NCBI GenBank assembly: GCA_964407715.1
Contig: CAYOWP010000016.1
Coordinates: 1 to 16,616, forward strand
DNA: 16,616 nucleotides
DNA from: an uncultured archaeon
Lineage (GTDB): Archaea > EX4484-52 > JAADEF01
Direction of reading: 5' to 3'
Shown here: piece by piece, positions 1 to 4,379 of the stretch
Layout of the letters: the number at the start of each line of letters is the position of its first letter
Position numbering within the stretch: the stretch's first letter is position 1
The notes under the pieces: generated by a model
What the model saw: the letters and a program-made list of their open reading frames with translations, nothing else
Told to the model about the DNA's origin: nothing
The model's database searches: none
Position numbers and translations under genes: made by a program

Positions 1-3000
1 TGTTTGTTCCATAAATAGAGAGTCCAGTATGGAGCATATGGGGTGTGTGGGTAAGTAGCATTTAGTAATTGATATCCTATACCTCCATATTTTGCTAAAG
101 GATTATCACTTCCGCCAAAAGGAGAAAAAGCATGAAAAACTTTGAAACCTTGTAATGCTACCTCTTTTATCCCTACTGCAAAAGAAATTGCATTAAGTAG
201 TGCTATTGTTCTAGGATCTGTCCCATTACTGCCTCCAGATCCTAAATTATATTCTGTCCAAATTAAATCTAATGTTTTATTGAACTTTTGTTTGTATTTT
301 GAAGTTATAAGCTCAAAACTATATATTCCTTTTGGATATTCACTATGTGTTCTCACTTTTGCAAAGTTAATAAGTATTGGATCTGTTCTCCAATTATAAT
401 TACTGCTAATTATAGGATCTTCATTATTGTTAGGAGGATAGTATATATTATTAAAGTTGCTGCTATTATAAGGATACATGCACGTTCCATATTCTAAATA
501 CCCTCTAACAATATAAGTCTCAAATTCTACAGAGTTGTTGTAAATATAATCAAAGAAATATCCTTCTCCCGTCCACATCATATCTGCAAGATTTTCTATG
601 CCAAAGAATATATTTTTCCCTATTTTCATATCTTTTGGCAAAGATTTGTTAATTTTATTTCTTGTATAGTTATAAACCCTTATATATCCTAAAGCATCCT
701 TAAGATAAATATCATTTATTATTACGAGTATAATTTTAGTAACATTTAATTCTGTTATTGTGTGATTTACAATATCCCACACATATTGAGCATAATCTGT
801 TTCATTAGGTATACATGTACTTGAATCATATGGCATACCTGGAGGATAATTTGGTGGACAACCTCCTATATGTAATATTGGCGTTGCATTTAATGTTTTG
901 GTTATGTAATTTATGGCTTTATCATAATCAGACCAATCATAATGATTACATTTGTGAATAGTTGCATTCCAGAAATCACATGAATCTGATGGGAAATAGG
1001 TTGTTAAGTATCCTCCTGTAATTGCTTTAATTTTTTCAGGAGGTATTCCACCAAGTAAATTATCATTGGTAATATGATATAAACTTGTAGATAATCCTAC
1101 AGTCAAATTTGATATTCCTATAGGCTTTGTGTAATTCGCAACAAGATTCACTTTTACAGGATAGGATAAGGAGATATTGAAAGAGGTTGTTGAATTGGTT
1201 AAAGTTAAGTTAGAGCATAAATATGCATGAGTTAAATCTTTAAAGTTAAAACTCCAATTTGCTTTAGGATCAGGGATTATGTTCCAATATTTTGTTATGT
1301 TTGGATAATTAGATGTTCCCCAAGGGAAATAAAAGAATGAAGGATAGAGTATGTTTGTGCATAGGGTTATGTTTGGATATGTGTTGTTTATTAATATGTC
1401 TTTTGGTATTGTTAGGGTTATTGTGTAATTTATTTTATTATTGGAGGATGATTTTTGGTTTTTTATTTTTATTTGGTTTTTTATTGGGATTTTGTATTTT
1501 AGGAGTAGGGTTATGTTGGGTTCTGGTGGAGTTATGTTTAGTTGTCCTGTGGTTTGGTTATAGGATAAAGCAGAAAGATAATGTTGCTTTATTTCCTTAG
1601 GGGTTAAAGCAACATTATAGATTCTTAGATTATCTATTGCTCCTCTTAGATCTTTGCCTATTATTATATCTGTATCTGAAGTTGCTATCTTTGAGTTTAA
1701 GAGAGGATAAGTAGCAACTAATTTTCCGTTTATGTATAGGGAGAGATTGCCATATTTTGCTGTAAATACTATGTGATTCCATTTATGTAAATTAGATGAA
1801 TTGAATGGATATTCTATGAATACATAACTATCTCTGCTATATTGTTCTTCCTTTACTCCCATAAGTAGAGAATCTTCCCATCCATAACGCCATACTGTTA
1901 CCCATTTGTTTGAGATGTTTGCCTCGAGTCTGAGTTCATCTAGCCATGCATCTCCTGTGGAGTTTCTAAGACCAAACGAGGAAATTCTTATATATTTTGC
2001 ATCTGTAGGTACATCATATACAGGACTTATATTTTTTGACCAATCATAAGAATAATTTTTACAATAAGCAGGAGCTAAATGGAAATCAGGATAAGGTGGA
2101 GGTAAGATATTTCCCGTGGAGTTAAGAAATCTTGCTAGTAAAGTAAACCTTTTCCATCCTACTGTCGGATTGCATGTTATATTCTTTCCTTTAGACCATG
2201 CTACCCATCTTATTTGAGTTGCATTTTTTGGAAGTATAATTTTATTAACATTCCACAGACCATATAAAGGAGAGGAAGATGTTGAATTTATAAATTCTTC
2301 TGCATGAAATCTTACAGAACTATTTCCTATTATACCTTCTCCTCTCTCTATAGTTATATTGCAAGTTGAGCATAGAGGAGAAGAAGGCATATCAAAAATA
2401 ACATGCTCTTCGGTAATTGGTGTATTATCTTGAGGTCTATAAAGATAAAGGAAGTAGTCATCAGTATCTATAAGTTTGGCTGTTTGGTTAAATGCATCAG
2501 GTTTTAACCAAAATTCTATAGTAAGTTCTTGATTTGGATGTAGATAATTAGTATTCTCTATTTTAACATAGCCAGTTCCATTTAAAAGTAAAGCTTTATA
2601 TTGAACTCCTCTTGTATATGAAACATTATTTCCTATAACTTTATGTGGAGATAAAGAAGAATATGCCCCTCTATCTCGAAGAACATTATCAAATTTTAGA
2701 AATAAAACTGTATTTTGATTTGTGTAAATATCAGGACTTGTATCTATCACTGGGTACAAAGATTTGTACATATATTGAATTTCATAAGGGGTTAGAACTC
2801 GTGTATATATTCGGAAGTCATCAATACTAGTATTGTATCCTTTTCCGATATATAATGGATCTGTTAAATTGAGCTTTAATGGGAGATCAAATTCTCTTTT
2901 ATGCATTAATTTTCCATTAACATATATCAGAGAAACATTTCCATCATAAGTCCAGACAAGAAAATTCCATTTGTTATTAATCAGGTTAGATGTAGAAGCA

Positions 3001-3672
3001 CTATCACAAACCCTTCCTATAGGGGTATTAAAACATACTTGAAGAGCTTTATCTCCATATTTATCTGCCACATACCATCTCAAATCTTCTTGTGTATTAG
3101 GCCCTTTTCTATATGGACTTGCCCAAGGATTAAGCGGATAGTAGGGTTTCATCCAGAATGTTATAGAGATTTGTGTAATGTTTTCTATGGCTGATAAGGG
3201 TAAAGAAACATTAACACCACTTAGATCTGTTGTAAAATTCAATGCACATCCATGTATGCCAGGGACCCATTGAGGGTTATTTACTAAGGTTCCGTTATAT
3301 CCGTGACCTGATGTGTCATGTGCTATTGTACCTGAGCATTCATCAAACTTTAATGCTAATAGAGTAGAGTTATCATTATATATATCTGTGTCATTTACAT
3401 ATCTCCATACAGAGGGATAAACAGCTCCTGAAGGTAAAGTTAGCGTATAAGTTCCATTATAGTTTGTGAATGTTATGTTTTGAAGGATAGTTATGTAATT
3501 ATAGGAATCATCTTGTATTATTGGGATGTTTTCTTGGAATGTGGTGGAGAAATTTACATTTCCAGATGCATAAACGATAAAGAGAAATAGAAATATCGAG
3601 AGTAGAGAAAAAATTGTAACATAAATTTTAGTTATCTCTCTCTCTCTCTCTCTTCAGAGAGGTTTTTGGCAT
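1..3672 (-). CDS. Giant secreted/surface glycoprotein (signal peptide, 2x LamG/ConA-like, CBM-like insert, GH39/clan GH-A-like domain); 3'-truncated by window edge; frameshifted at a 5' (GA)n tract
   Basis: Manual translation: one minus frame is open from 3653 to the window edge (about 1,217 codons; absent from the ORF track because it has no stop in the window). It reads ITKIYVTIFSLLSIFLFLFIVYA-SGN (signal h-region), then LamG motifs LALKFDECSGTIAHDTSG, ISITFWMKP, KWNFLVWTYDG..LIYVNG, IDDFRIYTRVLTPYEI (~3370-2765). A second LamG set follows: LTIEFWLKP, KWNHIVFT..LSLYINGKLV, AIDNLRIYNVALTPKEI (~2715-1578). It ends with YDWSDYDKAI..PILHIG..IINDI..LIWTEYN (~1130-1). The ATG at 3672 is in a different frame and stops at TAA 3630-3628. 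Confidence 0.85.
1578..1618. repeat. Perfect 14-bp inverted repeat (hairpin) inside the giant gene
   Basis: ATAATGTTGCTTTA (1578-1591) and TAAAGCAACATTAT (1605-1618) are exact reverse complements with a 13-nt spacer. Confidence 0.8.
3635..3653 (-). repeat. (GA)9 dinucleotide simple sequence repeat in the signal-peptide coding region
   Basis: The + strand reads (TC)9T at 3635-3653. It is the only such microsatellite I saw in the window and lies between ATG 3672 and the signal-peptide h-region. Confidence 0.95.
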
Positions 3673-3696
3673 AAAAATATAATATATTGAAGGGAT

Positions 3697-3710
3697 TTAT
3701 ATAATTTTCT
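3697..3710 (-). promoter_or_regulatory. Archaeal BRE-TATA promoter for the giant surface-protein gene (probably leaderless)
   Basis: Minus strand AGAAAA-TTATATAA, with the TATA box 25-32 nt upstream of ATG 3672. Confidence 0.6.
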
Positions 3711-3740
3711 ATTATTTATTTAATTCTATTAAAATAGAAA

Positions 3741-4283
3741 GGGAGAGAGTTAATAAAAGGCATGCTGTCCTTCTCAAAGGGTTAGCTGCTCCAATATGCC
3801 TTTTGAGAGGGTATCTCTCCCCTTAACCATCTTTTATTTATCTTGAATAATATGGTTAACGCGAAGATATCGCTAACCTACTCGCATAGCAGCATGCTAA
3901 CCTGAAGAAAGGTTACCTGCTCACAAACGCTCAGAAAGGTTACCTGCTCCAATATGTCTTTTGAGAGGGTATTTCTCCCCTTAACCATTTTATTAAAAAT
4001 TGATTAACGGGAGAAAATCGCTTTATCAAGCACATAAGAGCATACTAACCTCTTTTCAGGTTAGCTGCTCACAAACGCTCAGAAAGGTTACCTGCTCCAA
4101 TATGTCTTTTGAGAGGGTATTTCTCCCCTTAACCATTTTATTAAAAATTGATTAACGGGAGAAAATCGCTTTATCAAGCACATAAGAGCATACTAACCTC
4201 TTTTCAGGTTAGCTGCTCACAAACGCTCAGAAAGGTTACCTGCTCCAATATGTCTTTTGAGAAGGTATGTCTCCCGGTTAACC
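3741..4283. repeat. Tandem array of four imperfect palindromic non-coding elements (A 3741-3830, B 3852-3988, C 4001-4136, D 4149-4283), including a perfect 148-bp tandem repeat
   Basis: 3917-4262 is an exact 148-bp-period repeat (2.3 copies). Units have self-complementary ends (ATGGTTAA/TTAACCAT in B; TTAAcGGGAGAAA/TTTCTCCCcTTAA in C), an inner stem GAGCAtaCTAACCT/AGGTTAGcTGCTC, and short AT-rich spacers. Confidence 0.9.
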
Positions 4284-4379
4284 CTCTTCTACCCATTCCA
4301 TGCAACCACTTAACACAAACACAATCGCATTATAGAATGCTAATTCCTCTTGTCCTGAATGATGAAATCATGTTTCTTC

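Follow-up and report, generated by a model that had tools for sequence, protein, structure and literature searches.

Phase variation driven by sequence repeats is seen as a feature of bacterial pathogens adapted to their hosts. The locus described here raises the question of whether a perfect (GA)9 tract in the leader of a large archaeal gene could be a switch of this kind. The tract lies on the minus strand of a 16,616-nucleotide stretch of DNA (hereafter the window), which is the whole of contig C16 of a DPANN genome, G000, of ∼ 0.9 Mb (898 kb, 32% G+C, 92% complete). A sequence-only reading of the window had proposed that slippage in the tract toggles an adhesin or host-interaction protein. 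The neighbouring genes on C16 are archaeal housekeeping genes, encoding ribosomal proteins L10/P0 and L1, GatB/E, SufBCD and SerRS. The gene itself is truncated at its 3′ end, as the long frame reaches position 3 and so the end of the contig.

The intergenic DNA 5′ of the gene (window 3760-4290) contains an array of a ∼ 150-bp repeat, which finds matches of 65-88% identity at dozens of sites on nearly all 16 contigs of the genome. When this repeat was used as a BLAST query, contigs C8 and C9 of G000 returned mirror-image matches with equal scores. These two contigs are probably the same region present twice in reverse complement, which would represent redundancy within the MAG.

The elements at the 5′ end of the gene are as follows.

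3697..3710, minus strand: BRE-like AGAAAA (3710-3705) and TATA box TTATATAA (3704-3697), from direct reading and TATA position
3628..3672, minus strand: short frame from ATG 3672-3670, 14 codons plus TAA 3630-3628, the proposed OFF-state product
3654..3656, minus strand: TGA closing the long frame just 5′ of the tract, from direct reading
3635..3652, minus strand: perfect (GA)9, the proposed slipped-strand switch, reading (TC)9 on the plus strand
3567..3635, minus strand: signal-peptide codons (ITK, h-region, VYA, with cleavage predicted before SG), from translation and hydropathy
3..3653, minus strand: long open frame of 1217 codons for a LamG-domain surface glycoprotein, from translation and Pfam

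Translation from ATG 3672 yields MPKTSLKRERERDN and terminates at the TAA at 3630-3628. The long frame begins 19 nt past this ATG (19 mod 3 = 1) and it follows arithmetically that the gain of one GA unit, or the loss of two, would join the two frames; an 8-unit allele meets an immediate TAA. Within the long frame the first ATG, GTG or TTG to be met is TTG 3242 at codon 138, leaving 137 codons devoid of a canonical start. In these respects the sequence-only reading, which had described the short-frame stop, the TGA at 3656-3654, a first usable start more than 130 codons in and fusion of the frames at 10 or 7 units, proved to be accurate. The anatomy is that of a 5′ dinucleotide-repeat ON/OFF switch, in which a change of +1 or -2 units would bring the start codon back into frame with a gene that is intact in other respects.

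The promoter was also examined against the genome as a whole. In the 628 ORFs of G000 that have 150 codons or more, TATA-like 8-mers peak at 28-34 nt (mode 32) 5′ of the ATG, which is the pattern of leaderless archaeal genes. The TTATATAA element of the switch gene is located 33/32 nt before ATG 3672, at the genome-wide mode, and the claim of a BRE-TATA at the expected distance therefore stands. Since the TATA box is at the modal distance to this ATG, the promoter aims at a start codon in a different frame from the body of the gene.

Following the tract, the long frame encodes ITK, a hydrophobic stretch of 18-20 residues with a Kyte-Doolittle 15-residue mean of up to 2.79, and then VYA immediately before SG. 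Judged by sequence and hydropathy, the features of a Sec-type signal peptide are all present (K in the n-region, an h-region, and V-Y-A before S-G), in agreement with the earlier expectation that the fused product would carry a well-formed Sec signal peptide. In the mRNA the tract is predicted to pair with the UC-rich codons of the h-region (3566-3668, minus strand; -28.7 kcal/mol, z -2.65, with 3/200 shuffles as stable). A search of the same segment and strand against Rfam gave no family above threshold, the best match being a plant-miRNA-like hairpin at chance level (26 bits against a gathering threshold of 77). At the DNA level, GA/TC mirror tracts can form triplex structures.

The tract stands apart from the rest of the genome in its length. 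Maximal GA/TC tracts of 3, 4 and 5 units occur 969, 83 and 5 times in G000, tracts of 6-8 units do not occur, and there are two of 9 units, compared with an expectation for (GA)9 of 5e-5 under a first-order Markov model. Indeed, the only dinucleotide tracts of at least 6 units in the 898 kb are the window tract and an identical copy on contig C2, the next longest having 5 units. The (GA)9 tract is a perfect repeat whose length greatly exceeds both the chance expectation and the background of the genome. The other repeats found in G000 (A/T runs of 9-10, one (TTATT)4 and one (TTC)5) are intergenic or unremarkable.

Two parts of the encoded protein are listed below.

2775..3203, minus strand: best-scoring Laminin_G_3 (concanavalin-A-like lectin) domain, residues 151-293, Pfam E 1.2e-39
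3..1106, minus strand: C-terminal 368 residues, GH39- or clan GH-A-like by language-model features, a lead only

The Pfam model Laminin_G_3 (PF13385) matches three stretches of the protein at 136.4 bits, against a cut-off of 27.6, and an additional LamG signal is seen at around residues 620-690. The long-frame protein also contains 52 N-x-S/T sequons for N-glycosylation. No Pfam family was found in the C-terminal 368 residues, and the sole match in a sequence search of the PDB, 5hon, was to the LamG region, with none to the C-terminal part. GH39 clusters gave a feature score of 0.95 with this part, although the 154-157 of 256 features shared are below the 170 typical of true members. The C-terminal part may thus resemble GH39-type glycosidases, a lead drawn from language-model features only. 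The earlier description of the protein as an adhesin was a guess: given LamG lectin-type domains together with a GH39-like C-terminal part, a secreted lectin-glycosidase is just as likely as an adhesin.

The second (GA)9 tract of the genome (contig C2, 3614-3631) is located within a paralogue of the gene (C2:1-4018) with 67.5% protein identity. Comparison of the two copies revealed two blocks of much higher similarity.

3250..3714, minus strand: cassette of ∼ 460 bp in common with C2, comprising promoter, ATG, (GA)9, signal peptide and ∼ 135 codons, from binned identity
1250..1550, minus strand: second block identical to the C2 paralogue, from the mosaic pattern (codons 700-800, pS 0.015)

Identity begins at ∼ 3714, just 5′ of the BRE/TATA, is complete (60/60) in all bins between 3665 and 3366 and remains at 56-57/60 down to 3246, while the remaining gene is ∼ 65-70% identical to the paralogue. 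This mosaic of sequence identity suggests that the switch cassette is probably kept alike between the paralogues by gene conversion. Positions 1-41 form another block perfectly identical to the C2 paralogue. C16 and C2 stop at one and the same position within the gene, and a common repeat therefore probably broke the assembly there.

The divergence between the paralogues is informative about the state of the gene. There are no stops in the 1217 codons of the C16 copy or in the 1210 codons of the C2 copy, compared with 65-120 in the other frames (70-120 in the five others of the C16 copy), and the two copies differ with dN 0.22 and dS 0.83, a dN/dS of ∼ 0.27. Two open bodies and this dN/dS together indicate that both paralogues were translated through their divergence. 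The gene body is functional, or was so until very recently, and ordinary pseudogene decay is an unlikely explanation, as had been argued from the ∼ 1,200 intact codons of the window copy.

Orthologues of the gene were sought in several collections. A protein search of 40 relatives returned LamG-domain matches only and no orthologue, and neither was an orthologue found in a search among shorter proteins. A search of 5.8 billion proteins produced one 58%-identical fragment, which lacks the N-terminus. When residues 1-140 were compared with 1.84 billion representatives, only residues ∼ 90-140, the start of the LamG region, were matched and residues 1-90 gave no match. JGI metagenome contigs contained no match to the flank pattern with a variable gap, and no related locus. 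As no orthologue with a 5′ end came from these searches, ON alleles of the gene were not seen.

The number of repeat units was then considered at the level of the assembly. Two public runs contain the stretch, X1 (the probable source) and X2, both in the form of Logan contigs rather than reads; comparison with these run contigs skips 3624-3663 as repeat, and contigs drop minority paths. In X1, a 300-letter contig covers 3415-3714 without a gap, which corresponds to 9 units. In X2, the contig aligns only as far as 3623, and 45 of its letters beyond that point are unaligned. No RNA run came up among those containing the stretch. The cassette node has a depth of 39.3, with flanks of 14.2 and 18.5 upstream and 31.1 and 21 downstream, and in the X1 contigs loose ends of either flank type are seen at 3714 and at 3231. 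A node depth close to the sum of the flanks (14 + 18), together with the two flank types, indicates that the cassette is one collapsed assembly node, so that the 9 units in both copies are one observation and not two. In addition, the X1 contig and the window disagree at 3453 and 3456, from which it follows that more than one cassette haplotype exists.

These data bear directly on one alternative explanation, namely that the consensus or the assembly masks a population, or one gene copy, that has mainly 10 or 7 units, each assembler having entered the most frequent path through the collapsed 460-bp cassette, 9 units, for both copies. A single graph node with two flank types on each side would permit this, as would the existence of at least two cassette haplotypes, from which each assembler picked one, and the loss of minority paths from contigs. 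However, two different assemblers gave 9 units with no gap, the tract is unambiguous at k above 18, and the Logan contigs break at the variant site 3414 and not at the tract. Moreover, one copy ON with the other OFF would itself be phase variation, and the explanation mostly overlaps with a slipped-strand switch. Masking of this type is considered unlikely.

Related tracts were found elsewhere in the phylum. A scan of 42 DPANN genomes, a collection in which the order, class and phylum sets are identical, identified GA tracts of at least 8 units at eight loci in five genomes, reduced to six by counting the two G000 copies once and setting aside one locus from a MAG of the same genus. The latter (L015, G001:C136:1-1072) has (GA)18 and other GA runs on a GC-rich 1-kb contig with Cys/Val-rich repetitive frames; it looks out of place in an archaeon of 32% G+C and probably entered the bin as a contaminant.

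At four of the six loci the tract is within a signal peptide or directly follows one, and none of these four is in frame. Besides the window, these are G011:C29, where 8 units precede a Laminin_G_3 protein and a 41-codon upstream frame starts MNHKTSL (compare MPKTSL in the window); G011:C21, with 9 units; and G022:C31, with 9 units directly past the lipobox of an NMT1-type lipoprotein binding protein. The two others are in frame in a methyltransferase and intergenic, 2 nt before an ATG, respectively. Tracts of 6-7 units were present at 13 loci, of which 11 were examined, those left out being G001:C152 (7 units) and G011:C14 (6 units). In G016:C40 a 7-unit tract is in frame with two ATGs of a Laminin_G_3 protein gene, the leader of which matches that of G011:C29, and a second binding-protein gene of G022 has 6 units and is out of frame. 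Of the remaining loci examined, some lie in frame within coiled-coil proteins, while others are intergenic or unclear. With one mismatch allowed, the leader motif of G011 and G016 was found exactly only in the three known copies, and no leader was seen in the 12 of 22 one-mismatch matches that were inspected.

The G022 locus (L028, G022:C31:1-1846) consists of tandem NMT1/THI5-type lipoprotein binding-protein genes with tracts at 335-346 and 1524-1541. The two paralogues have near-identical signal-peptide codons, with 6 and 9 units directly past the lipobox in each case, and are out of frame with their mature domains in opposite directions. Evidence that tract length does change in this lineage comes from an orthologous intergenic site, with 8 units in G018:C39 (L014) and 6 units in G028:C11 (L031), where the flanks are identical in 300/312 columns (96%) and the sole indel is two GA units. 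This tract stops 2 nt short of the ATG of an HD-domain-like gene, closely following the stop codon of the preceding gene, and may tune initiation or transcription rather than frame.

Taken together, GA tracts recur at the signal-peptide site in three families of the phylum, at differing lengths and in both phases. The secreted-protein tracts of the three other genomes have 6, 7, 8, 9 and 9 units, with one in frame and four out, and those in similar LamG leaders have 7, 8 and 9. The search for tracts in signal-peptide codons elsewhere, which had been put forward as a check, was thus positive, through both the identical C2 cassette and the three other genomes. The window and G022 copy 2 would each need +1 unit to regain the frame, whereas G011:C29, G011:C21 and G022 copy 1 would need -1 unit. 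As the shift needed differs between loci, the pattern fits random phase and not one recoding rule. In the consensus assemblies 5/6 secreted-protein loci are OFF, for which arithmetic gives P ∼ 0.35 (at least 5/6, with 2/3 of alleles OFF). The comparator loci were taken from consensus MAGs, among which related genomes do not count as independent. A proportion of this size agrees with random phase, and would be equally expected from a lineage-wide bypass mechanism.

The same observations allow a second alternative to be assessed, in which slippage inactivated the gene or genes recently and in one direction, leaving young pseudogenes and no adaptive switching. The consensus of the window gene is indeed out of frame, as are four other GA-tract secreted-protein genes in the phylum, and DPANN genomes are reductive. 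Yet more than 1200 codons remain open in each of two paralogues with a dN/dS of 0.27, and the promoter, ATG and signal peptide are perfectly preserved and homogenized between the copies. Long perfect tracts persist at like sites in three families, where decay would interrupt them, and a frameshift within a perfect tract is inherently reversible. One-way loss is therefore quite unlikely.

A third alternative is that the 9-unit allele is expressed anyway, through recoding or a non-AUG start. Slippage on AGAGAG, with the P-site tRNA-Arg or tRNA-Glu re-pairing after a shift of +/-2 nt, would be one route; a +1 shift at AAC-UAA-A or RNA polymerase slippage are possible others, and initiation at the in-frame AUA 3635-3633, which also gives a well-formed signal peptide, is a possible non-AUG route. 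A bypass of this sort would account for 5/6 secreted-protein loci in the phylum being out of frame in the consensus, and the mRNA pairing between the tract and the h-region codons (z -2.65) could be seen in the same light. Against this, the direction of the shift differs (+1 at two loci, -1 at three), so that one rule could not rescue every locus, no motif is common to the 0-frame stops and their flanks, no Rfam family or frameshift element was found at threshold, and a homologous leader with 7 units is in frame as it stands. The hallmarks of a programmed ribosomal frameshift, a common direction and a signal conserved in relatives, were not seen. Leaderless archaeal mRNAs require a 5′ AUG and, to our knowledge, cellular RNA polymerases have not been established to slip on dinucleotides. 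That the 9-unit allele is expressed through any of these routes is considered improbable. Two further candidates were rejected outright: re-initiation at ATG 3622, which is in the third frame and meets a stop after 22 codons, and an alternative code with TGA as sense, given that there is no long-frame ATG between the TGA and the upstream stop at 3722-3720.

Slipped-strand switching would operate at this locus as follows. Transcription would start ∼ 2 nt before ATG 3672, giving a leaderless mRNA. With 9 or 8 units the ribosome would stop after 12-14 codons and no protein would be exported (OFF), while slippage to 10 or 7 units would join the ATG, an (Arg-Glu)n stretch, the signal peptide and the body of 1200+ codons (ON). 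The cassette held in common with the C2 paralogue would be kept identical, probably by gene conversion. No MutS or MutS_V was found in the 92%-complete G000, and the sole match to NucS_C, in a 339-codon frame (L077, G000:C1:56943-60128), is sub-threshold at 22.5 bits against 24. That no canonical mismatch repair was found in G000 would favour slippage, an effect that is established for Helicobacter and Campylobacter.

Overall, the repeat is real, non-random and well placed, and the phylum context supports a phase-variation switch. We therefore lean, if only somewhat, towards the (GA)9 tract being a slipped-strand contingency switch in a secreted LamG-protein gene of a DPANN archaeon, assembled in the OFF state. 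In this scheme we infer that members of the population differ in tract length at the window locus, and that such length changes can be reversed and govern expression. Of the archaeal phase switch originally envisaged, the 5′ repeat ON/OFF anatomy is supported, whereas the adhesin is one possibility for the protein. More tentatively, it is plausible that the phylum possesses a small ‘phasome’, in which GA tracts in leaders toggle several secreted-protein genes (for LamG/glycosidase-like surface proteins and lipoprotein substrate-binding proteins) independently and gene conversion passes the cassette from one paralogue to another.

The available literature on archaea touches on this question from several sides. 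Repeat surveys that include archaea argue that 5′-biased repeats can inactivate genes reversibly across prokaryotes (PMC2831843, PMC3315296); in the available portions of these surveys the data are homopolymers or pooled statistics from 18 and a few archaeal genomes, respectively, with no archaeal ON/OFF locus described. A 2025 review, in the part available, treats the distribution of phase-variable loci across archaeal phylogenies as an open question (PMC11868660). The accessible text of a phage preprint states that contingency loci are known in archaea, citing two general works and a 1987 paper, by Vashakidze and Prangishvili, on simple repeats. A literature search of the accessible article text found no report of an archaeal gene switched ON and OFF by a repeat; what it found on archaea and DPANN was statistical repeat surveys, reviews and reference-list mentions. 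For DPANN together with phase variation, the term appeared in the accessible text only in reference lists or in relation to another organism.

Should the phylum-wide phasome prove true, contingency loci would thereby be described for the first time in Archaea. If the tracts switch, tiny symbiotic archaea would bet-hedge on a few surface proteins, probably towards hosts or viruses, and genes annotated in MAGs as frameshifted pseudogenes may be live. The question would in that case be directly testable by counts of repeat units in existing reads.

Known bacterial systems provide the closest comparisons. The opa genes of Neisseria are a multi-copy surface-protein family with a CTCTT pentamer repeat in each leader and most copies OFF at a time. 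The window gene and its relatives are alike in having a coding repeat in the leader of each copy; opa differs in that its unit is a pentamer, its host is bacterial and its switching is experimentally established. In Helicobacter pylori, paralogue families of outer-membrane proteins exchange sequence by gene conversion. Several of its outer-membrane protein genes (oipA/hopH, and also sabA and babA) have 5′ CT repeats, according to the portion of the source available (PMC10564699), and switching there has been shown by sequencing hundreds of isolates, whereas the window locus is known from consensus assemblies. The same text bears out the Helicobacter parallel drawn by the sequence-only reading. 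As at the window locus, the signal-peptide codons of a surface-protein gene, oipA, contain a perfect dinucleotide repeat (CT, read as GA from the opposite strand), and the number of units shifts the frame between the ATG and the remaining signal peptide (PMC10564699). H. pylori is a bacterial pathogen, whereas the window host is an uncultured archaeon, in which a TATA/BRE promoter would drive a leaderless mRNA for a LamG/glycosidase-like protein. The slipped-strand mechanism is already known; the host group is new.
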